DNA of 64,000 nt. Source: Candidatus Obscuribacteraceae bacterium. GTDB lineage: Bacteria; Cyanobacteriota; Vampirovibrionia; Obscuribacterales; Obscuribacteraceae. A program made the translations under genes and the position numbers. Within the stretch, counting starts at the first letter, position 1. The number at the start of each line of letters is the position of its first letter. The stretch is from NCBI GenBank assembly GCA_044229845.1, contig JBGASG010000004.1, forward strand, positions 352,001 through 416,000. Direction: 5' to 3'. The notes beneath the pieces were generated by a model, which saw only the letters and a list, made by a program, of their open reading frames with translations, searched no databases and was not told the DNA's origin. Shown here in pieces: positions 3,152 to 17,288 of this stretch.

Positions 3152-4195
3152 CTACCAGACTTGCTTGTCGCGCAGTTGCTTGTTGATGTCGCGCGACAGA
3201 TCCGACAGCTGTTGGTGGAGCACCCGCGACTGGTCATAGGTGAGCATGCCGCTGGAGTTGCTGCGCAAACGGGCTTCCAGATTGGCGATTTGCTGTTCTT
3301 TCGAAAGCAGCATATTGGCTTCGCTGGGTGTTAGCTTGCCGGACTTGATGCCTGAGTAGATACGCTGCTTGAGCAATGACTGTTGCTCGTTGACACCGTT
3401 GCCCTGACGCCATTTTTCCCAGTCGCGTCTCTTGCCGCGTCCGTGGCCGCCCCAGTTGGAAGCCGATGCGCGCGCACGCTGTTCGCCGCTGCTGATTGCC
3501 GTGCTGATTTGCGTTTCCAGCAAGTTGAGCTGGTTGAGAATCTCATTTTGTTCGTCGTAGGAGAGACGCCCATCGGCTGTCATTTGCGACTGCTTGATGC
3601 TGACTTGAGTCAACTGATTGCGCAGATTTGCCGATTCGCCTGGATTGAGATAACCGGAGACGACGCCTTGCTCGATGCGCGAGTCAAGTTCGGCGCGCTT
3701 TGCATCGAGGTGCGCAATTCGCTCTTGCTGCCGGCCGCCGCCGTTAGGTCCGCCGTATTTGCGGAACCAGTCGCCATGCCTGGCCGTGCCGGTGCCGACG
3801 GTGGTGGCGTTGGTCAAATATGTCTGCAGCTTCTGCGTCAACCGTGTTAACTCGTCCAGCAAATGCTGGGTTTCCATGTTGTCGAGCTGACCATCCATAA
3901 GATACTGACCTTCCAGTCCAGCAATCTGGTTGAGGTCAGCACGCAAGTCAGACTCTTCTTGCGGTGACAGTTGTCCTGATGTGACACCGGCTTGAATCTC
4001 TTGCTCCAACTGAGCTTGCCGGGTATTGATGTTGGTCTTGATGACATTTTGCGTGGCCGGGTTCACGGTCGATTTAGAAGCGCCGAGAAACGACCGCATC
4101 ATGCTTTCGAAGTCACCAGCCTGGGCTGCAAGCGGCGAACTAATCAAGCAGCAAAGCGACAACAAAATCGCTTTCTTACCGAATCCATTATTCAT
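3152..4195 (-). CDS. Secreted helical-repeat hypothetical protein (three ~65-aa repeats)
   Basis: Signal peptide ending AQA; repeats IQAGVTSGQLSPQE / IEQGVVSGYLNPGE / IYSGIKSGKLTPSE. Confidence 0.85.
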   Translation of the reverse strand: MNNGFGKKAILLSLCCLISSPLAAQAGDFESMMRSFLGASKSTVNPATQNVIKTNINTRQAQLEQEIQAGVTSGQLSPQEESDLRADLNQIAGLEGQYLMDGQLDNMETQHLLDELTRLTQKLQTYLTNATTVGTGTARHGDWFRKYGGPNGGGRQQERIAHLDAKRAELDSRIEQGVVSGYLNPGESANLRNQLTQVSIKQSQMTADGRLSYDEQNEILNQLNLLETQISTAISSGEQRARASASNWGGHGRGKRRDWEKWRQGNGVNEQQSLLKQRIYSGIKSGKLTPSEANMLLSKEQQIANLEARLRSNSSGMLTYDQSRVLHQQLSDLSRDINKQLRDKQVW

Positions 4196-4332
4196 ATGCA
4201 TATCCTTGATAAGCAGCATTCCGAGAGGCTTGCAATGTTACCAATATGCACGCGCTTTTTTATCTGTGCCACTGGCGGTATGTGGTTTACTTATGCGATT
4301 CAAATCCGCTCGATAGCCTTGAGGTGCACAAG

Positions 4333-4880: not shown

Positions 4881-5597
4881 CTAGTTAGCCATAAACCAGA
4901 GGTCGCGCTTCGCTTCAACCAGTTGGTCGAACCACTCCAGCATCGACTCCATCAAATCAAGCGTCCACTCCGAGAAATCGATCTCGTTCAAGTGACCCTT
5001 TTTCGTTATGTCCTCGGCCCACTCGTGTTGTTTCTTTATGGCGGCGCGCAGCGCCTTCACCTCATCAAGACTGAGGTAGGCGTAATAGCTCCAGCCCGTG
5101 TCGATTGATTCACCGAACAGCGGCCGACCTTCAATCAGGTAATTCATCAGAGTCACGGTTTGTTCGTCGAATCGTTTCTCAAACGACTCCATAAATTCCC
5201 AGAAGCCGTTCATCTTCCAGACACTCGATTCCGTATCCAGCATGTCGGGCTGATCGAACTCCGCCAGCATCTTCGCAGCCAGCACGTGTGACATGTTTTC
5301 AACTTGCGTTCCTGCTAGCGGCACGCCTTCGAAAATCGCGGCGCGCACGTGATCTTTTGCCGAGTGCAGATTGGTTTCCTCGTCGTCATCACCGTCATCG
5401 AACTCCAACTCAGCGTCACCCTCATCTGATTCGGCATCCGCATCGGAGTCTGCATCATCGTCTTCATCGGACTCCAGCTCACCCAACATCTCTTCGAGAT
5501 CTTTGACAATCTTTTGAGCGGCCTTTTCGTTTTTGCTGCCGAACAAGGCAAACATCTTTGCTTTGTCGAACCCGTAGATTTCAGGTCGCAACGACAT
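4881..5597 (-). CDS. Acidic hypothetical protein with an internal D/E tract
   Basis: AGGAGG RBS; long ORF; D/E-rich segment of about 35 aa. Confidence 0.8.
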   Translation of the reverse strand: MSLRPEIYGFDKAKMFALFGSKNEKAAQKIVKDLEEMLGELESDEDDDADSDADAESDEGDAELEFDDGDDDEETNLHSAKDHVRAAIFEGVPLAGTQVENMSHVLAAKMLAEFDQPDMLDTESSVWKMNGFWEFMESFEKRFDEQTVTLMNYLIEGRPLFGESIDTGWSYYAYLSLDEVKALRAAIKKQHEWAEDITKKGHLNEIDFSEWTLDLMESMLEWFDQLVEAKRDLWFMAN

Positions 5598-5716
5598 GCT
5601 GGTCACCTCCTGTCAGAGGTCAAGATTATATGGCTGTAGAGGTGCGCCAGCGGGCAAACTATAAGTGATTTTGCAATACAAACATATGCTAAACTGCATC
5701 CTTGAAAGCCAAGCCA

Positions 5717-8200
5717 ATGCCAGAAGAAAAGATAGTCGTTACCGTGATTGGCGCCGGCAAGATAGGTTTGCCCCTTGCTTGCCAATTTGCTGCGCGCGGC
5801 GCGCAGGTAATCGCTTGCGACGTGCGCAAAGACGTCGTGAAATCTATAAATCGCGGCCGGTCGCCAATTGAAGAGCCCGGCATCGCCGAGGTACTTAAGA
5901 AAGCTGTTGATGCCGGCCGCTTGTCGGCAACTAGTGATACACCAAAAGCGGTATCAGAAAGCGACGTCGTCGTGGTGGTTGTACCAATTCCTTTGACTGC
6001 CAGCAACGAAGCCGATATTTCGGTCGTGGAAGATGTGACAGCGTCTATCGCCAAAGGACTGAAAGCCGGCACGCTCGTTTCCTACGAAACAACCTTGCCT
6101 GTCGGCACCACGCGCAACCTGGCACGAATTCTCGAGACCACCGGGCTGGTCGCCGGCCAAGATTTCGACCTGGCGTTCTCGCCTGAACGCGTGAAGAGCA
6201 ACATGGTCATGCAACGACTGGCGGAACATCCGAAAGTCGTGGGCGGCGTCAACGACCGCTCCGCCGACCGGGCCGAAGAGTTTTACTCGAAGTACCTGGG
6301 CGCTCCGGTTATCAACGTAGATTCGCTGGAAGCAGCTGAATTCGTCAAGCTCGCCGGGGTCGCCTTCCGCGACGTCAACATCGCACTGGCAAATGAACTG
6401 GCTCGCTACGCCGACGCTATCGGGGTCGATGCCGAACTGATTATCAAAGCCGCCAATACCGATGGCGAGGCAGCCCTGCTGCGTCCAGGCATCGGCGTCG
6501 GCGGATATCGATCGCCTGTCTATCCGCACTTCCTGATTAATGATGCCGACAATCGCGGGATACCCTGCGAGTTGCCCGCCATCAGCCGCGCCATCAACGA
6601 CACGCAACCCAGCTACTTTTTGGACCGTGTGGAAGAAACCTGGAAAAGCCTCAAGGGACAGAGTGTCTTGATGCTGGGATTGGGTTTTAGGCCGCAGGTG
6701 AAGGACAGCTCCAATTCCCCGGCTTTCAAATTGCGCGACGAGCTGAAACGGCGCGGCGCGACGCCTTATGTACAGGATGCTCTCTATACCGACGAAGAAT
6801 TGCGCGAACAGGGATTTGCCACCTGGGAATCCAACTCGCTACCGCCCGTGGTGATTCTGGTCACGGCGCATGATGAGTTCAAACAGATGAAACCAGCCAA
6901 GCTGGCGGCACGCGGCTGCGAAGTATTGGTCGACGGACGCAATGCATTTTCCCATGCCGATGCCTGCAAGAGCGGCTTGATTTACATCGGAGTCGGGCGC
7001 AGCTACGGCATCGACGACAACAATGTCCACAACCGTCCTATTCCATTGACGCGGCCTCTGGTAGCATCGCGCGAGTCGGCCGCGGCTGTATCAGTGATCA
7101 GATCCGGCTCACTCGTGCAAGGTCCGCAAGTAGCCCTGTTAGAAAAAGAATTCAGCGACTACGTCGGCGCCGGCTATGCGTGTGCCGTTTCTTCCGGCAC
7201 GTCCGGTCTGCACCTGGCGCTGCTTTCCTGCGGCATCGGACCCGGCGATGAAGTGATCACGGTCAGCTACAGCGGTGTCGCGCCGGCCAACGCCATTCGT
7301 TATTGCGGCGCCATTCCGGTATTCATTGATGTGGAGCCCGATACGTTCAACATCAACACCGACCAGATCGAAGAGGCGATCACCGAGAAGACCAAAGCCA
7401 TACTGTGCGTACACCAGATGGGCATGCCCTGCGATCTGACCAAACTGCTCGCGCTGGCCCGGCGCAACAAACTGCGCGTCGTCGAAGGCGCCGCCGGCGC
7501 CACCGGCAGCGAGATTTTACTTTACCGTCAATGGCAGCGCATCGGGCGACCGCACGGCGATGTGGCTTGCTTCTCGTTTCACCCGCGCAACCTGGTCACC
7601 ACCGGCGATGGCGGCATGATCACCACCGAGAACGGGGATATCGATCGACTCTGCCGGCTCTGGCGGGATCACGGCACCAACGAACTCGGGCACCACGACT
7701 CGATGGGCTTCAATTACAGATTGACGGATGTATTGGGAGCAATCGGGCGCATACAACTGCAACGACTGCCGGCGCAGGTCGTTCGACGTCGCCAGCAAGC
7801 CGAGCGTTATCACGAATTGCTGCGCTGCATCGAAGGTGTCAACCTGCCGCGCGAGCCTGAATGGGCGCGCAGCAACTGGCAAAGCTACTGCATTACTTTC
7901 GCCAGCGAGCAGCTGCGCGATGCAGTCCAGGCGCATCTTACCGACTTGAAGGTCGAAACGCGTCCGGGCATCAGCTGTATTCACCGCGCCCCGGCCTACA
8001 CGCAGGAGTTGTGGCGGTGCGCCGGAGAGACGATCGAGTCATCAGCTGCGGCAGCGTCTAAACGCCTGAAACAAAGCGAACAATCTCAAGATCGCGGTTT
8101 GATCTTGCCGCTCTTCGATAATCTGTCCGATGCAGATATGCGACGGGTCGCCGACGCCATCGGCAGTGTGGTATCAAAACACGCTCTGGCCAAACTGTAA
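5717..8200 (+). CDS. Fusion of a UDP-glucose/GDP-mannose dehydrogenase-family domain and a DegT/DnrJ/EryC1/StrS aminotransferase-family domain; catalytic residues substituted in both
   Basis: GAGKIG, FSPERV, RDVNIALANE, LVDGRN; then AVSSGTSGLHLAL, IGPGDEVI, VHQMG, GFNYRLTD, LILPLF. Confidence 0.92.
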   Translation: MPEEKIVVTVIGAGKIGLPLACQFAARGAQVIACDVRKDVVKSINRGRSPIEEPGIAEVLKKAVDAGRLSATSDTPKAVSESDVVVVVVPIPLTASNEADISVVEDVTASIAKGLKAGTLVSYETTLPVGTTRNLARILETTGLVAGQDFDLAFSPERVKSNMVMQRLAEHPKVVGGVNDRSADRAEEFYSKYLGAPVINVDSLEAAEFVKLAGVAFRDVNIALANELARYADAIGVDAELIIKAANTDGEAALLRPGIGVGGYRSPVYPHFLINDADNRGIPCELPAISRAINDTQPSYFLDRVEETWKSLKGQSVLMLGLGFRPQVKDSSNSPAFKLRDELKRRGATPYVQDALYTDEELREQGFATWESNSLPPVVILVTAHDEFKQMKPAKLAARGCEVLVDGRNAFSHADACKSGLIYIGVGRSYGIDDNNVHNRPIPLTRPLVASRESAAAVSVIRSGSLVQGPQVALLEKEFSDYVGAGYACAVSSGTSGLHLALLSCGIGPGDEVITVSYSGVAPANAIRYCGAIPVFIDVEPDTFNINTDQIEEAITEKTKAILCVHQMGMPCDLTKLLALARRNKLRVVEGAAGATGSEILLYRQWQRIGRPHGDVACFSFHPRNLVTTGDGGMITTENGDIDRLCRLWRDHGTNELGHHDSMGFNYRLTDVLGAIGRIQLQRLPAQVVRRRQQAERYHELLRCIEGVNLPREPEWARSNWQSYCITFASEQLRDAVQAHLTDLKVETRPGISCIHRAPAYTQELWRCAGETIESSAAAASKRLKQSEQSQDRGLILPLFDNLSDADMRRVADAIGSVVSKHALAKL

Positions 8201-8210
8201 TGGCGAAGCT

Positions 8211-8642
8211 ATGACAATTCCGAAACGCCTTGTTTACCTGATTCTGTTAGCTTTGCTGGCGATAAATCTGCCGCTCGCAGCGCGCGAGTTTCGCCTGTTT
8301 CGCACCGAGACTGATCTTGTCAGTCTGATAGACACGCGTCTCGCCCCGGTGATATCGCAGTTGCCGGCGTACGGTGAAATCGGCTACCAGTTCGACCCCC
8401 GCGCTCAACCAGATGGCTCAACCGCAGGCACACTCTATTCCGTGCGCCCGATGCCCAACCACGACACGCTGGTCAATTTCACCATCGTGCAGTTTGCGCT
8501 GGCGCCGCGCATTCTCGTCAACTCCACTGACTGCCCGCAGGTGGTCGGATGCTTTAACGAGCCAATGCCCAAGCTGGGCAACTCGCGGCTGCCGGTCAAA
8601 GACTTCGGCAACGGCATCTGCCTGATACAGAAAGGGAAGTGA
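8211..8642 (+). CDS. Hypothetical membrane-anchored protein
   Basis: ATG 10 nt after the upstream stop; N-terminal TM; QFALAPRIL. Confidence 0.75.
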   Translation: MTIPKRLVYLILLALLAINLPLAAREFRLFRTETDLVSLIDTRLAPVISQLPAYGEIGYQFDPRAQPDGSTAGTLYSVRPMPNHDTLVNFTIVQFALAPRILVNSTDCPQVVGCFNEPMPKLGNSRLPVKDFGNGICLIQKGK

Positions 8643-8645
8643 CCT

Positions 8646-10034
8646 GTGCTCGGCGTGCTCAGCATCATTCTGTCGACCATCTTGGGCTATTTGCTGGTGG
8701 CGCATCTGGTGCCGATGCCTGCGGGATTTTTCCGGCACTTATTAAGACTTTCGCTCGGCAGCGGAGTCGGATTGGGCATTCTGTCAGCGGCGTTTTTCAT
8801 CTTGCGTGCCGCCGGTCTGACGGCACCGCCTGCCGCGTGGGTTTCTTTACTGGCTCTGGCTGTGGCAAGTGCGGTGCTGTTTGCCCGACGGCCCTTTCCC
8901 CGATCTTTTGTTTTGCAGCCGCAATCGCAGCGCGAAGATAAGTTTCTCGTCGGCTGCGCCTGCGTCTGCACGGTTCTAGGTTTCATCATCAACATCGCCA
9001 TTTTTGCGCCCGCTATCTGGGCCCGCCCCTCTGGCGATTTCGATGCTCTGGCGGTTTGGAATCTGCGGGCTCGTTTCCTGACTCTCACTGACACAGAGCA
9101 CTTCCGCGATGCCTTTTCGCCGGACCTGATATACGCACATACTGATTACCCCTTGCTCATACCCGGCAGCATCGCTCAGATGTGGTCACTGTCCGGTGAC
9201 TTCTGGTGGCTGACACCAATGCTGGTGGCAGCGGTATTTTTCCTGGCTATGCCCAGCGTCATGCTCGCCAGCTTCTCCTGCCTGAGGCGCCATTTTCAGG
9301 GTTGTGTTGCGGCATTAGCAACTCTGGGCGGCTTCGGGTATTCGATGTTGGCCGCAGCTCAATACGCCGATGTGCCTATGTCATTCTTCGTGGCCGGCAC
9401 TATTTGCAGTGTCTATTTAGGATTTTCCGCCGGCAGCACTCGTCCGTTTGCGATGGCGGGACTGTGCGCGGGCTTGGCGGCCTGGACCAAGAATGAAGGC
9501 TACGCGTTTTGTCTGGTTGCCCTAACCACAATTATGGCGGCGATCGTCGCGGTGCGCGGCGAGGCGTGCAAGCGGCGTCTGCTGATGCTCGGCAGTGGTG
9601 CGGCGGCAATATTGTGGGTTGTGGTTATCTTTAAACTGTTCTTCGCCGGTCCCGGGGATCCGGTCATGGCCAATGCACCCACGATGGCCCAGCGGTTTCA
9701 CGATCAGGAACGAGTGCTTTACACTGCCACGTCATTTGCGGTATCCGCGCCGACATTCCTGCATTGGCTCGTATTTCCTCTGTTTCCTCTCCTGGCGGCA
9801 CTGCCGTTTGTGGGAGTCGATCTGCGCCGGGGCAACGGCGTGACGGCGATTATCGCAGCGGTCATAGTCTGCCTGATGGTGCCCGCCTACTTCATCGCCT
9901 ACATCGCCTCGCCCTACAACCTGCACTGGCTGGTGGCGTTCTCGGTAGATCGACTGTTCATGCAAATCTGGCCGGCGGCGCTCATGGTCTTATTGCTGAT
10001 TATGAAACCACCGACGCGGTCGACGGTTCAATAA
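8646..10034 (+). CDS. Polytopic GT-C (ArnT/GT39-like) glycosyltransferase
   Basis: Many TM helices; DALAVWNLRARF, HTDYPLL, YADVP, WTKNEG motifs. Confidence 0.75.
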   Translation: MLGVLSIILSTILGYLLVAHLVPMPAGFFRHLLRLSLGSGVGLGILSAAFFILRAAGLTAPPAAWVSLLALAVASAVLFARRPFPRSFVLQPQSQREDKFLVGCACVCTVLGFIINIAIFAPAIWARPSGDFDALAVWNLRARFLTLTDTEHFRDAFSPDLIYAHTDYPLLIPGSIAQMWSLSGDFWWLTPMLVAAVFFLAMPSVMLASFSCLRRHFQGCVAALATLGGFGYSMLAAAQYADVPMSFFVAGTICSVYLGFSAGSTRPFAMAGLCAGLAAWTKNEGYAFCLVALTTIMAAIVAVRGEACKRRLLMLGSGAAAILWVVVIFKLFFAGPGDPVMANAPTMAQRFHDQERVLYTATSFAVSAPTFLHWLVFPLFPLLAALPFVGVDLRRGNGVTAIIAAVIVCLMVPAYFIAYIASPYNLHWLVAFSVDRLFMQIWPAALMVLLLIMKPPTRSTVQ

Positions 10035-10267
10035 ACGCGGCGGCGGCAGACGGCACAGAAGACGCGCAGCCCATTGGGTTTGTAGAAACGCACTTCGTAC
10101 CAGGTGCGGTCGCGCGCCATATATAAGCGTTCGTCGGCAACACCGCGATAAGCGATGTGCACCTTGTCGCTGCAACAAGGAATCTCGACGTCGGCAGCGG
10201 CGTCGTCCCGTTTCTTCAAGCGAAATTTTTTCAACTGGGCAAGGGCGCGCTTCAGGTCTTCGTTCAT
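10028..10267 (-). CDS. Small Cys-containing protein (CC...CxxC)
   Basis: Start overlaps the kinase stop (ATGA); IPCCSD and FCAVCRR. Confidence 0.7.
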   Translation of the reverse strand: MNEDLKRALAQLKKFRLKKRDDAAADVEIPCCSDKVHIAYRGVADERLYMARDRTWYEVRFYKPNGLRVFCAVCRRRVY

Positions 10268-11724
10268 GACCGCTGAGACACCTGCACTTTGACGGGCAGC
10301 CGCACCGTGAACGTGGACCCCTTGCCGGGAGCCGAGTCTACTTCCACCACGCCGTGATGGCGGGCAATAATTTCGCGGGTAATCGCCAGCCCCAGTCCGG
10401 TACCGCCGCCGGTGCGCGTCCGCGCTTTGTCGGCGCGATAGAAACGCTCGAAGATGTGCGGCAAATCGGAGGGATCGATGCCCGGGCCGTTGTCTTGGAT
10501 GGTGACTTCGACGATGTCCGGCTCCAGCACTTTGGTGGCCACCGTGACGGTGCCACCACCAGGGGTGTAGTTGACGGCATTGGTTAATAGATTGACGAAA
10601 GCACGCTGCAACTGAATGCTCTTGCCGCTGACCATCAGCCCCTCGGCGGAGACGAGATCTTGAATGGCTGTGGATTTCTTCTGCGCCTGCGGGCGGATTT
10701 GATCCATCGCATCGTTGAGAATGTCGCTCAGCCTCACCTCTTCCTGCCAGTCTTGCGTGATGCCGGCATCAAGACGGGTGATGTCGAGCAAATCGCGCAG
10801 CAGGCTGGTCTGGCGGTCAACGAGATTTTCCAGCGAGTGCAGGAATTGTTTGCGCAAATCGGGATCTTCCGCGGCGCCGGCTTGTAGCGCTTCGACCACA
10901 GAGCCGATGGCCATGGTCGGCGTTTTCAGTTCGTGGCTGGCGTTGGCGATGAACTCCTGGCGCAGTCTTTCCTCTTCGCGCAAGCGTCCGATCATTTGAT
11001 TGAATGACAAACCCAGTTCGCTGATCTCATCCTGCCGGCGCACCGGCACGAATACCGAAATATCCCCGGACTTGGCAATCTGGCGCGCCATATCGCTCAT
11101 CTCGCGCAGCGGACGAGTCATTCTGCGCGCCACCCATATGCTGATCAAAGCAGTGGCTATCAAAGTAGCGAAGGTCAATTCAAGAAACACAATCAGGTCA
11201 CGATTGACACGCTGGTTGATGTCAGTCAGTGGTACCCCAACGCGAATTACGCCCCCGGTCTGCCCCGAAGAACGCACTGGATATGCCACATACAGCCACT
11301 CGGTCTTTTTCAGGTTGCGGCGATAGTTGGCGGCGATACCAGCCAACGCGTCTTGAATTTCCGGTTGATTGGAGATGTTCTCTCCTTCGCGCAGCGGCTT
11401 GTGTCCTGAGTCTGCGACAACTTTGCCGTTGCTGTTCACAACCGTGATTGCCAGATTGAGTTTGCTGGCATGCCGATAAACAGCGCGTCTGATGCGTTCG
11501 GTAGCCTGCTCGGAATCGAGCTGCATGTCATTGTCGATTTCAAGCGCTAAGTGCACCGCTTCGACTTCCAGACCGTTGCGCAGGTCTTTGATCGACTCGG
11601 CTTTGATGGTTACCAACGCCCAAACGGTAACGCAGGTGAGCGCAAAGGTGACTACTAACAAGTAGGTAACCAGCAGTTGGTTTGCCAGACTTCGTGATAG
11701 CCAGCGATATATCCGTTCGAACAA
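10264..11724 (-). CDS. Membrane sensor histidine kinase (HAMP, HisKA, HATPase)
   Basis: FIANASHELKTP H-box; NLLTNAVNY, DNGPGI, IFERFYR, GTGLGL. Confidence 0.95.
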   Translation of the reverse strand: MFERIYRWLSRSLANQLLVTYLLVVTFALTCVTVWALVTIKAESIKDLRNGLEVEAVHLALEIDNDMQLDSEQATERIRRAVYRHASKLNLAITVVNSNGKVVADSGHKPLREGENISNQPEIQDALAGIAANYRRNLKKTEWLYVAYPVRSSGQTGGVIRVGVPLTDINQRVNRDLIVFLELTFATLIATALISIWVARRMTRPLREMSDMARQIAKSGDISVFVPVRRQDEISELGLSFNQMIGRLREEERLRQEFIANASHELKTPTMAIGSVVEALQAGAAEDPDLRKQFLHSLENLVDRQTSLLRDLLDITRLDAGITQDWQEEVRLSDILNDAMDQIRPQAQKKSTAIQDLVSAEGLMVSGKSIQLQRAFVNLLTNAVNYTPGGGTVTVATKVLEPDIVEVTIQDNGPGIDPSDLPHIFERFYRADKARTRTGGGTGLGLAITREIIARHHGVVEVDSAPGKGSTFTVRLPVKVQVSQRS

Positions 11725-11934: not shown

Positions 11935-12258
11935 ATGTCTAGTGTGGCAAACGTTACCGACGCAACGTTCGAGCAAGAGGTACTCAAGGCTGAGGTGCCG
12001 GTGCTCGTCGACTTCTGGGCTCCGTGGTGCGGTCCATGTAAAGCCGTCGCGCCAGTCGTCGAAGATCTTTCCAAAGAGTATGAAGGCCGCTTGAAGGTCG
12101 TAAAGCTCAACACCGATGAGAATCCGAAAACCGCCCAGGCTTACACGATTCGTGGTATCCCAAGTCTGTATCTCTTCAAGAGCGGTCAAGTCGTTGAGCA
12201 AGTCGTCGGCGCCGTGCCGAAGTCGACCCTGGCTAACGCCATCAACAAGCACCTTTAA
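11935..12258 (+). CDS. trxA: Thioredoxin
   Basis: [31 protein letters not shown]. Confidence 0.96.
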
Positions 12259-12285
12259 GCCGCGACTACCCGCCTGGGTTTCGTC

Positions 12286-12723
12286 ATGAAGCAAGTCCTG
12301 ATTGCAGCTGTCGCATGCCTGCTGATTGGCGGCTGTGGTGGCGACACGCCCACATCTACATCTGAGTCGACGTCTGCATCTACGCCCACATCTGAGTCCA
12401 CGAGCGGCGTCACCCATGTCACGGACGCCACCTTCGAACGCGAGGTGCTCAAGGCTGACGGTCCGGTGCTCGTCGATTTCTGGGCTCCGTGGTGCGGTCC
12501 CTGTCGAGCCATGGCGCCCACTGTCGAGGAGATCTCGCGGGACTATGCCGGTCGCGTCAAGGTCGTGAAGCTCAACACCGACGAGAATCCCCAGAGCGCC
12601 CAGAAATACCAGATTCGCGGCATTCCCAGCCTCTATCTATTCAAAGATGGTGAGGTCGTGGAGCAGGTCGTGGGAGCCGTGCCGAAGGCGACGCTGGCGG
12701 CGGTCCTGGACAAGCATCTATAA
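12286..12723 (+). CDS. Thioredoxin with predicted lipoprotein signal and S/T linker
   Basis: [17 protein letters not shown] lipobox-like; [19 protein letters not shown] linker; WCGPC. Confidence 0.9.
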
Positions 12724-12829
12724 GCCTACCCAGACACCGGGATTCCCCCGCTGTCCGCGCAGAGCAACCAGGATATACTGGGTGTTCAAAGGCTGATGCC
12801 TGCTCATAACCCTGGTTGGACTGCATCTT

Positions 12830-13348
12830 ATGAAAGAAGTATTGATCGCCTTTATCGTCGCCCTTGTGATTGGCGCTGCCATGAATGGATTGGGCATGTC
12901 CTTCTTTCTAGAGAAGCCGTCCACGCCGCCCCAGACAAGCTCTGCCAATCCAGCAGGATCCGATGACACAACCGGAGTCGTAACCGACGAATCCGATGAT
13001 TCGTCAGAGAGCTCATCCGGTCAGAATCATGTCAGCGAAACCGATCAGGACAAATTCGCATCGGAGGTGCTGCAGGCATCCAAACCAGTATTGGTGGACT
13101 TCTACGCCGATTGGTGTGGTCCCTGCAAGCAAATGTCGCCCGTCATTGAGAAACTTGCCAATCAGTACGATGGACGCCTGCAGGTCTACAAAGTAAACAT
13201 AGACAAGAACCCCAAGCTCGTTGCAAAGTACAACATCCAAAGCATCCCGACATTCATCATTTACAAGAATGGCGCCTCGGTGGAGAACTTTGCCGGCTCG
13301 ATGCCGCGGACAGAGCTGGCCGCCGCCATCGACAAGCACATCAACTAA
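12830..13348 (+). CDS. Thioredoxin with N-terminal membrane anchor
   Basis: Hydrophobic N-terminus, S/D-rich linker, FYADWCGPCK, IQSIPT. Confidence 0.9.
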   Translation: MKEVLIAFIVALVIGAAMNGLGMSFFLEKPSTPPQTSSANPAGSDDTTGVVTDESDDSSESSSGQNHVSETDQDKFASEVLQASKPVLVDFYADWCGPCKQMSPVIEKLANQYDGRLQVYKVNIDKNPKLVAKYNIQSIPTFIIYKNGASVENFAGSMPRTELAAAIDKHIN

Positions 13349-13808: not shown

Positions 13809-16800
13809 ATGTTAAAGAACTGGGCCAGATGGACTCTTCTCCTTTTGTGGATGGTGTTGCTGGTAGCGACCGTCACATTCTGGAACCCGTTCACTTCGCT
13901 GCCGGCGCTACTTAAGTTTTCGGTACTGCAGGTAGTGGCAGCCGTCATATTCGGCGGCTTCATGATCATGATGCAGTTCTACATCTTGATGGTAATCCTC
14001 TTCCCGATGCCGCAGCGTGCCGACGCAAAAGCACCGAAGAGCCTCGGGCTGAAAATATTTCCGTGGATGTTCAAGAAGACGCAGATCAATCCCAAGGCAC
14101 CGCAATTGCTCAAGGATTTGATCGGCAACGAACCTGCAAAGGTGGAAATCAAAGAAGTGATCGACATGATCGCGCATCCAGATCGATATGCCGCTTCTGG
14201 AGCTGAAGTGCCTAAGGGCATGCTCTTCATCGGACCACCCGGCGTTGGCAAAACTCTGTTTGCACGCGCCATTGCCAACGAAGTTGGAATTCCATTTTAT
14301 GTCGTCGAAGGGTCCAACCTGAGCGGCTTGTTTTTTGGCTTGGGCGTGATCAAGCTCAAGACCTTGTTTGGTCGATTGAAACGCCATAACAAAGCGATCT
14401 TGTTCATCGACGAAATTGATTCGATGGGCGCGAGACGCAGATCCGACTCGGGTATGGGCGCTCAGTCCGACATGAATATGACGCTGAATACATTGCTCAC
14501 CGAGATGGACGGCTTTGGTAGCTCTGCGAACCTTCTGGTGATCGGTGCCACCAATAACGATGCCATCTTAGACCCTGCTTTGATGCGTGCCGGTCGCATG
14601 GATAGGCGCATCTATTTCCAGACACCCTCTCCCGAAGAGCGTCAAGAACTGTTCAAGTATTACCTCAGTAAGGTGGTATACGACCGCAACATAGATCTGG
14701 TGGAGCTTTCCGATCTGACATCTGGTTTCTCGCATGCCGACATTGCCAATATCGTCAATGAAGCGGCTCTGATCAGTCAGCGTCCAAGCGGTCCCCAGCA
14801 AGTCACCACAGATACAGCTAAGCAAGCTCTGGACCGTGTCTCCGTGGGACTGGAACGCTCTTTGATCGGCTCGGGCGTCGAGTTGATCACAGGAGATCCA
14901 ACAGTCAAGTTAGCCGATGTAGTCGGCATCGACGACATCAAACCAGAAGTCACTGAGATTATCGACTTCTTGAGGCAAGGCGATCACTTGAGAAAAATAG
15001 GCGCCAAGCTTCCCAAAGGCGTCCTCCTAATCGGTCCTCCCGGTGTTGGCAAAACCATGTTAGCCAAGGCCATCGCTAACGAGGCTGGAGTGCCGTTCTA
15101 TGGATTGTCCGCGCCTTACATGCTCAGTATGTTTAAGGGTGAAGGTGCAGGCCGGATTCGAGCCCTCTACGCGCAAGCCAGAAAAAGTCCCGCTGCAATC
15201 ATTTTCATTGATGAAATCGACTCCATTGGCGGTGGCAGACAGGAAGTTCAGGGCATGGGCAACCAGCGCACCGAAGAACTCAATCAGATGCTTGTAGAAC
15301 TCGATGGCATAGGACGCAGCAACGTTATTACGATCGGTGCAACCAACCGCGAGCAAGAGCTGGATTCAGCATTTAGCCGCGCCGGACGCTTCGACCGAAA
15401 GGTGTACATCGGACTGCCAGACTCCGAGTCTCGCAAGAAAATTCTCCAGAGCTACTTGAAGAAGATCAAGATTGCGGCGGAGCCCGATCTCGACAAACTT
15501 TCCAAGGACACAGTGAACTTCTCTGGAGCAGACATCGCTGCCGCAGTGAATGAAGCGGCGATACTAGCTGTTCGAGAGAAAAAGGACCACGTTGAAGAAA
15601 AGCATCTTGAGGAGGCTGTGGAAAAAATCTCAGTCACAGCCGGCAACAAGATGAACACAAGCGGCATCAACCTGGCCCGGGTTCCAGATATCGATGTGAA
15701 GCTCGAGCACATCAAAGGTATGGATGAGGCAAAGGCCGAAGCAGCTGAAGTTGTGGCCTTGCTGAAGAACGCTCATCTTGTCCAGCAGAGCGGGCTAAAG
15801 GCTCCCAAAGGAATCCTGCTGGTGGGTCCGCCCGGAACGGGCAAAACTATGCTAGCCAAGGCGATTGCCAACGAGGCTGGTGTGCCATTTTACGCCCTGA
15901 CGGGCAGTGACTTTGTTCAGGTGTGGGTCGGCTTGGGAGCCCAGCGAATTCGTGCTGTGTATGAGCAAGCGCGGCGCAGCGGCAAACCCGCGATTGTATT
16001 CATCGACGAAATAGATGCTCTCGGTCACGCTCGTGGGATCGACCAGGGTGCTGGCGGGAAACAAGAGCACAACCAGACCCTCAATCAGTTTCTCACCGAA
16101 CTTGATGGATTCGGAAAGCACAAAGTGCTCACCATTGGTGCCACAAACAACCCGCAGCTCCTCGACCGCGCTTTGCTGCGACCAGGTAGATTCGACCGAC
16201 GTATCGAGGTACCGCTTCCCAATATGGAAGGTCGCGAAGCAATTTTGCAGCACTATCTCGGAAAGCTAAAGATGTCGGCTGGCGTTAATCTTCTGGAAAT
16301 CGCTCGCATGACGGTATTTCAGTCTGGCGCAGATCTGGCAAATATTGCCAACGAAGCTGGACTGATTGCGATTCGGGAAGGAAGGCTCGACATCAACCAG
16401 AGGGATCTCATCGAAGCAATTCAGCGGGTCAACTTCGGCATTTCACGCAGCCAAAACATCGTCCTCGAAGAACTGTGGGCAACGGCCTATCACGAAGCTG
16501 GACACGCTATGGTTTCGTACTTTAGAGACAAGCGCACCCGGATACAGATCATCACTATCGTCCCGACCGGCAGGGCGCTGGGTTATATGTGGCACGTCGA
16601 TAAGGACGATCTGTTCCACCACTCGCCCAACAAGCACGAGCTGCTAGTCGACATGGAAATATCGCTCGGCGGTTATGCAGCTGAAAACCTGCATCAAGAA
16701 ACAACCACAGCTGGAGTGAGCAGCGACTTGACTAACGTCGGGCGCATCGCACGCCAGATGGTCCGCGAGTGGGGTATGGGCTCCTTCAAGTTCAACGTTG

Positions 16801-17288
16801 ATCATGCGTTTTCGGATGAATTTAACTATGGTGCCAGCGGACAGGGAATTGGAATCTCAGACCAAACAGCACGGGAACTGGAGCTTGAAATGAAACAGCT
16901 GGTGGACGGCTGTTTGAAAAACGTCGAACAGCTTTTGAGAGCTAAGCGCAAGGAACTCGATCAGATCGCTCATGCTCTCGTGGAGAAGGAAACACTCTTC
17001 TACCGCGACCTGGTGGCGATCCTGGAACCGCATCGCAGCGACTCGGACGTGGAGCACGAAATCGCAACTCTCGCAGAACGCAAATTGGTGGGCAAGAAAC
17101 GCGAGATCAGCTTTGATCTGGTGAAAGGCCTTGGATTGGTCAGTGGAGGCGGAAGCAGCTCTCCCGCTGGCAAGCCGACCAGTTCGCCGGGTGCAGATTC
17201 CGGCGGGCTTGGCACCGTAGGTGGTGAAGGTGGTCCGCTGGGTTCACCGGAGAATAATCGCGATGCGGGTCCCGAAGGCGATCACTAG
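13809..17288 (+). CDS. FtsH-like membrane zinc protease with three tandem AAA+ domains and an M41 peptidase domain
   Basis: Two N-terminal TMs; Walker A at 14232, 15033 and 15825; three FIDEID Walker B motifs; three SRH motifs; AYHEAGH at 16491. Confidence 0.93.
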   Translation: MLKNWARWTLLLLWMVLLVATVTFWNPFTSLPALLKFSVLQVVAAVIFGGFMIMMQFYILMVILFPMPQRADAKAPKSLGLKIFPWMFKKTQINPKAPQLLKDLIGNEPAKVEIKEVIDMIAHPDRYAASGAEVPKGMLFIGPPGVGKTLFARAIANEVGIPFYVVEGSNLSGLFFGLGVIKLKTLFGRLKRHNKAILFIDEIDSMGARRRSDSGMGAQSDMNMTLNTLLTEMDGFGSSANLLVIGATNNDAILDPALMRAGRMDRRIYFQTPSPEERQELFKYYLSKVVYDRNIDLVELSDLTSGFSHADIANIVNEAALISQRPSGPQQVTTDTAKQALDRVSVGLERSLIGSGVELITGDPTVKLADVVGIDDIKPEVTEIIDFLRQGDHLRKIGAKLPKGVLLIGPPGVGKTMLAKAIANEAGVPFYGLSAPYMLSMFKGEGAGRIRALYAQARKSPAAIIFIDEIDSIGGGRQEVQGMGNQRTEELNQMLVELDGIGRSNVITIGATNREQELDSAFSRAGRFDRKVYIGLPDSESRKKILQSYLKKIKIAAEPDLDKLSKDTVNFSGADIAAAVNEAAILAVREKKDHVEEKHLEEAVEKISVTAGNKMNTSGINLARVPDIDVKLEHIKGMDEAKAEAAEVVALLKNAHLVQQSGLKAPKGILLVGPPGTGKTMLAKAIANEAGVPFYALTGSDFVQVWVGLGAQRIRAVYEQARRSGKPAIVFIDEIDALGHARGIDQGAGGKQEHNQTLNQFLTELDGFGKHKVLTIGATNNPQLLDRALLRPGRFDRRIEVPLPNMEGREAILQHYLGKLKMSAGVNLLEIARMTVFQSGADLANIANEAGLIAIREGRLDINQRDLIEAIQRVNFGISRSQNIVLEELWATAYHEAGHAMVSYFRDKRTRIQIITIVPTGRALGYMWHVDKDDLFHHSPNKHELLVDMEISLGGYAAENLHQETTTAGVSSDLTNVGRIARQMVREWGMGSFKFNVDHAFSDEFNYGASGQGIGISDQTARELELEMKQLVDGCLKNVEQLLRAKRKELDQIAHALVEKETLFYRDLVAILEPHRSDSDVEHEIATLAERKLVGKKREISFDLVKGLGLVSGGGSSSPAGKPTSSPGADSGGLGTVGGEGGPLGSPENNRDAGPEGDH

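Follow-up and report, generated by a model that had tools for sequence, protein, structure and literature searches.

A dehydrogenase–DegT aminotransferase fusion conserved without its canonical catalytic residues in a genus of uncultured cyanobacterial relatives

The window analysed here is a 64,000-nucleotide stretch from the genome of a Candidatus Obscuribacteraceae bacterium (contig JBGASG010000004.1, positions 352,001 to 416,000 of the forward strand), in which one gene encodes a fusion of a nucleoside diphosphate (NDP)-sugar dehydrogenase-like half and a DegT aminotransferase-like half (Table 1). The canonical catalytic residues of both halves have been replaced, and we refer to this form as dead with respect to those residues. 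As far as can be judged from sequence, the fusion is conserved in one genus and maintained by purifying selection despite the loss. In this genus of uncultured non-photosynthetic cyanobacterial relatives it probably does a new non-catalytic job, because it is strongly conserved although its catalytic residues are gone and its partner genes were not found. The genome of the window is called G000 below, and the congener compared with it throughout is called G001.

The fusion gene forms a single unbroken frame from an ATG at 5717 to a TAA at 8198–8200, as had been noted in a first-pass annotation made from the letters of this DNA. Pfam domains UDPG_MGDP_dh_N (residues 8–185), central (205–295) and C (318–412) are followed by DegT_DnrJ_EryC1 (451–815). 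The dehydrogenase half matches TIGR03026 with 333 bits (cut-off 189.8) and has the three-domain UDPG_MGDP fold, with GxGxxG and the Asp that binds nicotinamide adenine dinucleotide (NAD) present. The DegT half matches PF01041 with 311 bits and scores under all NCBIfam aminotransferase cut-offs. An AlphaFold2 model of the protein has a pLDDT of 94 and a pTM of 0.84, and Foldseek searches with this model (TMt 0.90 to 4r16 and 0.94 to 3dr4) indicated native folds in both halves; Pfam and Foldseek agree on fold type I for the DegT half.

The codons for Arg265 (CGA), Gly591 (GGC) and Asn625 (AAC) stand where the first-pass annotation had read them, and the alignment with homologues that it proposed as a check bears it out: solved structures and intact fusions place all three substitutions on catalytic positions. 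Arg265 falls on the GGHC cysteine of 4r16 and Cap5O, and Asn625 aligns with K186 of perosamine synthase, a Lys that is Ala in the K186A mutant 3dr4. Gly591 occupies the position of the Asp in the EDAA motif; in DegT enzymes this Asp binds the ring nitrogen of pyridoxal phosphate (PLP). The cysteine, numbered Cys260, is described in PMC4794789 as a covalent catalyst invariant in 229 NDP-sugar dehydrogenases. Further losses, beyond the three reported earlier, are W465S, T523P, C594G, M215V, H264Y and T266S/A. The PLP pocket of the DegT half is altered by W465S (at 7109), F520G (at 7274), T523P, D591G, C594G and K625N; the stacking aromatic position 520 is Gly in 7 of 8 members of the dead clade, and position 625 carries Asn, not the His that replaces the Schiff-base Lys in ColD and E1. 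The dehydrogenase half has lost H264Y, C265R, T266S and M215V and keeps G12/G14/G17, D35, T126, P156-E157-R158, E208, K211, R218, N226, G262-G263, R325 and D406-G-R408, so that the equivalents of Lys204, Glu141 and Thr118 (K211, E157 and T126) are all present.

The three substitutions are not errors, because contigs of an independent DNA run (X13, not marked as possible source) are identical letter for letter over 5844–6841 and 6914–8121 (0 differences, all three codons included). In line with this, G001 carries the same three residues, with Arg265 encoded by a different codon, CGG. Recoding or editing was also rejected, as CGA, GGC and AAC are ordinary sense codons and the Arg codon of G001 is synonymous. 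General decay of the sugar enzymes of the genome was rejected as well: four other DegT paralogues keep both Asp and Lys, and the UDP (uridine diphosphate)-glucose dehydrogenase (UGDH) keeps its Cys.

A protein search with the fusion returned 107 matches of about 720–860 amino acids (aa) that cover most of the query. Search matches and cluster members of at least 790 aa were combined in an alignment of 113 sequences, which was split by motif. Cys265, Asp591, Lys625 and Trp465 are kept without exception in 103 of the 113, and eight share all three losses: P0001, P0002, P0122–P0126 (97–99%) and P0003 (89.6%). The members of this dead clade, which includes the sequence of the window, are 89–100% identical, all have Arg265 (8/8) and contain no stop or frameshift. 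Among intact fusions, P0004 and P0005 come closest to them, at 72–73% identity. None of the 113 aligned fusions is dead in one half only. Among stand-alone homologues, Cys is found in 126 of the 126 dehydrogenases that were aligned (128 given) and Lys in 159 of 160 DegT matches from 160 loci, the exception being a 98%-identical copy of the dead gene. In a search for split or half-dead forms, the best 120 shorter matches were all at most 60% identical, and all aligned dehydrogenases kept Cys. No active copy of the fusion was found in G000, and scans of genomes and metagenomes for more DNA of the dead clade gave only one copy, 98% identical (L031). The fusion occurs in 6 of 401 genomes sampled from the class, all within the family: it is dead in G000 and G001 and intact in G013, G020, G308 and G310. 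These distributions indicate an old, widespread and mostly intact family, a point missed by the first-pass annotation.

The dehydrogenase half also belongs to a large parent subfamily with the motif GGHC-T/I-PVYP, which includes window positions 5717–7006 and homologues P0113–P0121 and P0130–P0397. Its active site co-varies: Tyr10 is replaced by Lys/Arg, Thr83 by a hydrophobic residue, Asn208 by Met/Thr/Gly, Asp264 by Tyr and Lys320 by Arg, with Cys kept. The intact fusions have K15, V/A91, M215, Y269 and R325 at these five positions. In 89 scorable representatives of 50% clusters, 77 have Tyr at 269 and lack Asn, and 12 have Asn and lack Tyr. The dead fusion lacks the same canonical residues, with V215 and Y269 as the equivalents of Asn208 and Asp264; this is not by itself a sign of death, because the intact parent subfamily also lacks them. 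No member of the subfamily was seen among the 11 closest solved structures; the rearranged motif was found in none of the four closest judged in three alignments, and 2y0d is an engineered Y10K mutant. The chemistry of the parent subfamily may differ from that of standard UGDH.

Comparison of the fusion genes of G000 and G001 gave a ratio of non-synonymous to synonymous rates (dN/dS) of 0.041 at a dS of 0.32. The two genes show 165 synonymous differences (Sd) and 24 non-synonymous ones (Nd), and neutrality is rejected with p about 1e-71. Values of 0 to 0.195 (median about 0.02) were obtained for 22 neighbouring genes, so that the fusion falls inside their range; these neighbours remained after 10 shadow frames (0.5–10) and one likely paralogue match had been set aside from the 34 open reading frames compared. 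Because both genomes carry the dead form, the ratio for the fusion measures selection on the dead protein. With so low a ratio at this divergence, and in both halves (Table 1), the gene is not a pseudogene, and the incipient pseudogene with dN/dS near 1 that the first-pass annotation had kept as an alternative is contradicted. Its proposed check for substitutions shared under purifying selection gave a clear result, the losses being common to eight sequences down to 89% identity.

The losses are not spread evenly along the protein. Out of 192 columns that are at least 95% conserved in the intact proteins, 14 are lost in all eight clade members, while intact proteins depart from the 192 columns at a median of 2 and a maximum of 10 positions. 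Seven of the 14 lie within the 22 catalytic-motif columns (expected 1.6, p = 0.0002), whereas the 103 intact proteins have only 12 of 265 pooled departures there. When the PLP loops, chosen partly after the data were seen, are added to the catalytic motifs, 9 of the 14 are included. The other clade-lost columns are mostly mild (M16I, I88V, Y217F and E330D). This concentration on catalytic positions had been proposed in the first-pass annotation, and together with the low dN/dS and the sharing of the losses among eight sequences it supports the accompanying proposal of repurposing rather than random decay. RNA data added little: five short identical contigs from three studies lie inside the fusion gene at a depth of 2–3, possibly as DNA carry-over, and runs X15, X17 and X18 (8–13% of words) gave a few contigs of 150–250 bases in the fusion gene and its neighbours, too weak a signal for transcription.

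A second dead lineage, also overlooked in the first-pass annotation, is formed by P0051 and P0127, a 98% identical pair in which Cys is replaced by Ser and H-P-R-K by D-A-H-S; both carry W465S and keep the Asp of EDAA. They also differ by an S-P-E-R-V-K-S loop and D100N. In a tree of 45 rows, hand-picked from 118 as dead rows, nearest matches and a spread of others (LG+G4, quick search), P0001/P0003 group at full support with the intact P0004, P0005 and P0006, apart from P0051/P0127. Constraining the four dead rows together was rejected (approximately unbiased test, p = 0.0008). The tree thus argues for an independent origin of the second lineage; the exact place of P0051 is soft because its stem is long (0.7). 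Both dead lineages, together with G013, G308 and G310, fall in a single starred 14-row clade. Five lost sites are common to the two lineages (16, 265, 465, 594 and 625; expected 1.7, p = 0.015), of which W465S is identical. Both lineages retain every one of the 34 dehydrogenase positions tabulated, most of which belong to NAD- or UDP-binding motifs; those fixed include the Rossmann glycines, D35, T126, S-P-E-R, E208, K211, R218, N226, G262-G263, R325 and D-G-R.

The genomic context separates the intact from the dead fusions. A short-chain dehydrogenase/reductase (SDR) 57–100% identical to that of G013 is present in exactly four of 104 family genomes, those with the intact fusion, and lies directly upstream of it. 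In G000 and G001 the best SDR match is 34–35% identical, and the partner SDR was found in neither (0/2). The presence of the upstream SDR tracks with catalytic competence of the fusion; as the genomes are kin and not independent, no p-value is attached. In G013 the genes are arranged as Gfo oxidase, hexapeptide acyltransferase, SDR, fusion and a second acyltransferase, and in G308 and G310 a second DegT gene precedes the SDR. G000 contains no close match to the cassette acyltransferases or the Gfo protein, and no new pathway genes were found around the dead fusion gene. The best PDB match of the SDR is 8vr2, presumably the C4 oxidase/decarboxylase of the triacetamido-arabinose pathway, whose entry is numbered next to that of the Psychrobacter aminotransferase Pcryo_0618. 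PMC8040287 names this sugar only.

The best explanation, to which we give an even chance, sees the fusion as an orphaned double pseudoenzyme retained for some non-catalytic role, with NAD(H) or UDP-sugar bound through the dehydrogenase half. Its ancestor, to judge from the intact relatives, would have been a nucleotide-sugar C6 dehydrogenase fused to a C4-type aminotransferase, encoded in an amino-sugar cassette with a Gfo oxidase, hexapeptide acyltransferases, a second DegT and an SDR directly upstream. In the genus of the window no cassette partners were found. There, at the sequence level, the loss of the Cys nucleophile came together with that of the PLP site, in a burst on one branch, and the protein has since been under ordinary purifying selection (shown for one genome pair). 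Neither ancestral reaction would run any longer. The dehydrogenase half would be the working part. The fixation of its residues for coenzyme and UDP binding suggests that it would still take up NAD(H) and/or UDP-sugar; at the site of the former Cys attack, Arg265 may, with Lys211 next to it, hold the C6 carboxylate of a uronic acid. The DegT half would be a PLP-free structural module that serves dimerisation or interaction. The likeliest use would be as a nucleotide-sugar or redox sensor, or a buffer, for envelope glycan synthesis, with a target other than the adjacent GT-C protein.

Several points weigh against this reading. The conservation of K211, E157, T126, K15 and Y269 could mean fold maintenance or new catalysis, and the proposed Arg–carboxylate grip may not hold. 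No regulator or target gene is linked to the dead fusion. Since only one further copy, 98% identical, was recovered, dN/dS comes from a single genome pair in which both members carry the dead form. The genomes are 66–91% complete (88–89% for the dead-gene pair), so that missing partners are to be read as not found. Support for a working dehydrogenase half comes from the losses after P0001 and P0003 diverged, when the DegT half lost 7 of its 80 near-invariant positions and the dehydrogenase half 0 of its 98 (p = 0.003, 95% cut-off); however, this asymmetry disappears at a 99% cut-off (0/64 versus 1/47), rests on one protein pair and is not seen in the G000–G001 dN/dS of the halves (0.026 versus 0.033).

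An alternative that we consider unlikely is a neo-enzyme in which the dehydrogenase half runs a new Cys-independent two-electron reaction and the DegT half is a structural appendage. Held by Arg265/Lys211, a UDP-uronate could undergo a single oxidation, an epimerisation or an oxidative decarboxylation. All eight sequences retain K211, E157, T126 and the entire NAD site, the dehydrogenase half has no further near-invariant loss after the split, and the block of changes M215V, Y217F, H264Y, C265R and T266S/A resembles active-site remodelling. The predicted chemistry of the parent subfamily, with its departures from the textbook site, leaves some room for such an enzyme. UGDH mutants without the Cys retain partial chemistry, as according to PMC3265891 the C260A variant oxidises hydrated aldehyde; however, the same paper gives C260A as inactive on UDP-glucose and human C276A as very slow. 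The two dead lineages also share no new site, because the second has Ser and not Arg at 265, along with its own loop and D100N, and new pathway genes around the fusion are missing.

We hold equally unlikely that the fusion clade had a hidden second function, needing neither catalytic site, which evolution exposed twice. Once the amino-sugar cassette had gone, two lineages would each have shed Cys, Lys and Trp465 independently, with the full 827-aa chain preserved. In the genus of the window, Arg in place of the nucleophile would make the dehydrogenase site a receptor for UDP-uronate/NAD(H), and ligand-controlled rings or filaments could arise from the two dimer-forming folds, giving a stand-alone nucleotide-sugar sensor without an active paralogue. 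A ligand-free form of moonlighting, in which the intact fusion already had a structural or protein-interaction role that was retained after pathway loss, is somewhat less probable. Each half has a fold that forms dimers, and the fusion may therefore assemble into rings or filaments. In support, both independent dead lineages fall within a single 14-row starred clade, to which three Obscuribacterales genomes belong, and the rest of the sampled fusions contain none; the dN/dS constraint is equal in the two halves; and no half-dead or shortened dead form was found. However, this alternative leaves unexplained the full retention of NAD/UDP-binding residues next to drifting PLP-site loops; the clade count is biased by searches built around the dead proteins, and the dimer interfaces are putative.

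The first-pass annotation had the fusion act as a sensor or scaffold for the downstream GT-C glycosyltransferase. In G000 the fusion is co-oriented with, and 10 bp from, the gene for a 143-aa protein, an X13 contig spanning 8118–9489 confirms that the adjacency is real, and the 462-aa protein encoded next does resemble GT-C (it resembles Atlas clusters with PMT_2 on 17–31% of members and has no Pfam match itself). However, G001 is 93.6% identical to the window up to base 8200 and the similarity resumes at 10027, with the two genes between missing (blastn break at 8201–10026). Neither protein was found elsewhere in G001 (89% complete), which nevertheless keeps the dead gene under the same selection. 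Among the 103 other family genomes, five have a GT-C homologue and five the fusion, with zero overlap, and in G144 (L201) the same pair follows a different gene, without the fusion. The GT-C adjacency is dispensable for the dead fusion, and service to this protein is now largely refuted and very improbable, whereas a role as a sensor is still plausible. The 143-aa/GT-C module is a putative mobile unit.

An incipient pseudogene, a slowly decaying relic or a sequencing error is slightly less credible again. The narrow range (dead form in 2 of 401 class genomes), the partner genes that were not found, the still drifting PLP-site loops and RNA evidence of a few short low-depth contigs would fit such a relic, but the low dN/dS at appreciable dS with its 165 to 24 excess of synonymous differences, the open frame in eight sequences to 89% identity, the conserved upstream region and the identical independent DNA run do not. 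The least probable alternative, continued activity in the ancestral reactions through substitute residues, draws on the active Lys-less DegT-fold dehydratases that carry His in its place (PMC8987622 and bioRxiv 2021.09.04.459008) and on H622, R624 and the S-S-G-T phosphate cup kept in the lineage of the window, but position 625 is Asn and not His, Asp, Trp465 and the stacking aromatic are gone too (Gly520 in 7/8), the SDR that would supply the keto-sugar was not found, and the second lineage lost H622–K625 wholly.

The dead fusion can be compared with several known systems. With NDP-sugar dehydrogenases (the UDP-glucose/GDP-mannose/UDP-ManNAc dehydrogenase family, including WecC/Cap5O, Pyrococcus horikoshii 4r16 and CalS8) it shares the three Pfam domains, TIGR03026, the fold, the Rossmann motif and the Lys204 and Glu141 equivalents, but the equivalent of Cys260 is Arg and a DegT domain is fused. 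The fold of the DegT/DnrJ/EryC1/StrS aminotransferases (perosamine synthase, ArnB, PseC, Pcryo_0618) is matched with TMt 0.93–0.95, and the intact DegT paralogues of the genome are 36–38% identical to the dead half, which lacks the Schiff-base Lys and the EDAA Asp and carries W465S and F520G. The 3-dehydratases ColD, E1 and SpnQ have the same fold and likewise lack the catalytic Lys; according to PMC8987622 they use a catalytic His and pyridoxamine phosphate, whereas here the residue is Asn and the cofactor pocket is eroded. The intact fusions in double-amination cassettes (103 sequences; G013, G020, G308, G310) have the same architecture at 47–73% identity, in a cassette logic like that of the triacetamido-arabinose enzymes of Psychrobacter cryohalolentis, whereas the dead gene lacks the catalytic residues, lies among unrelated genes, and its partner SDR and acyltransferases were not found. 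As in pseudoenzymes in general, an enzyme fold is kept under selection without catalytic residues. Antizyme inhibitor, plant PDX1.2 and trypanosome prozyme are pseudoenzymes that adjoin an active paralogue which they regulate; here, in contrast, the genome yielded no active orthologue, and a single chain carries two unrelated folds that are both dead. On these comparisons the dead fusion falls outside both active families and appears to work most like a pseudoenzyme.

A literature search, which extended to sources outside subscription journals and supplements, turned up no account of the fusion or of a dead version of it. In databases these proteins carry the labels 'nucleotide sugar dehydrogenase' or 'perosamine synthetase', and pathway reconstructions would therefore count two activities that are probably absent. 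The family offers a clean natural experiment on the origin of bacterial pseudoenzymes: it contains intact relatives (72% identity), a dead clade for which purifying selection was measured, a second, convergent dead lineage and a partner gene that tracks catalysis. Should UDP-sugars bind to the dead fusion, bacteria would have a nucleotide-sugar sensor of a new kind, and a predicted soluble protein with a confident model eases direct tests.

Table 1. Coordinates of the fusion gene, its parts and adjoining features in the window
Feature	Position	Strand	Remarks
Fusion gene, 827 aa	5717–8200	+	NDP-sugar dehydrogenase-like half and DegT aminotransferase-like half; canonical catalytic residues gone from both
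Dehydrogenase half, aa 1–430	5717–7006	+	dN/dS 0.026
Arg265 (CGA) at nucleophilic Cys position	6509–6511	+	Cys in 103/103 intact fusions and 126/126 aligned stand-alone homologues
Linker, 10 aa	7007–7036	+	Sole unconstrained part; 7 non-synonymous versus 1 synonymous difference to G001
DegT-fold half, aa 441–827	7037–8197	+	PLP pocket eroded, fold kept; dN/dS 0.033
Gly591 (GGC) at Asp of EDAA motif	7487–7489	+	Asp in 103/103 intact fusions and 59/59 representatives
Asn625 (AAC) at Schiff-base Lys	7589–7591	+	Lys in 103/103 intact fusions
Intergenic region, 110 bp	5607–5716		Shared with divergent 241-aa gene; conserved
Two-gene module: 143-aa protein and 462-aa GT-C-like membrane protein	8211–10034	+	Absent from G001; not part of the finding

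The 110 bp upstream of the fusion differ from G001 at only 2 of 110 sites, compared with 26% at the synonymous sites of the fusion gene, and probably hold the promoter(s). No sigma-70-like consensus was found in this region, and promoter/terminator and Rfam scans gave nothing above chance. The divergent gene on the other side (4881–5606, minus strand) encodes an acidic 241-aa protein without a Pfam match; homologues occur in 13 of the 103 other family genomes, and only that of G001 adjoins a fusion.

Elsewhere in G000 (C8:525385–527595, minus strand), the intact UGDH and the UXS-like SDR that follows it are joined in a single 771-aa frame by an in-frame deletion of 114 bp in comparison with G001. 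The deletion removes the C-terminus of UGDH and the Rossmann glycine motif of the SDR, and is either a real lesion or an assembly artefact. In the window, a secreted-looking 355-aa protein (3152–4219, minus strand) has three repeats of an 'SG.L...E...L' helical unit and no Pfam match. Three tandem thioredoxin genes (11935–13348, plus strand), two with N-terminal signal- or lipoprotein-like extensions, are divergent from a histidine kinase gene (10264–11724) that is present in 91 of 104 family genomes. An FtsH-like M41 protease (13809–17288, plus strand) has three AAA domains in one 1159-aa chain and is strongly conserved (dN/dS 0.006).

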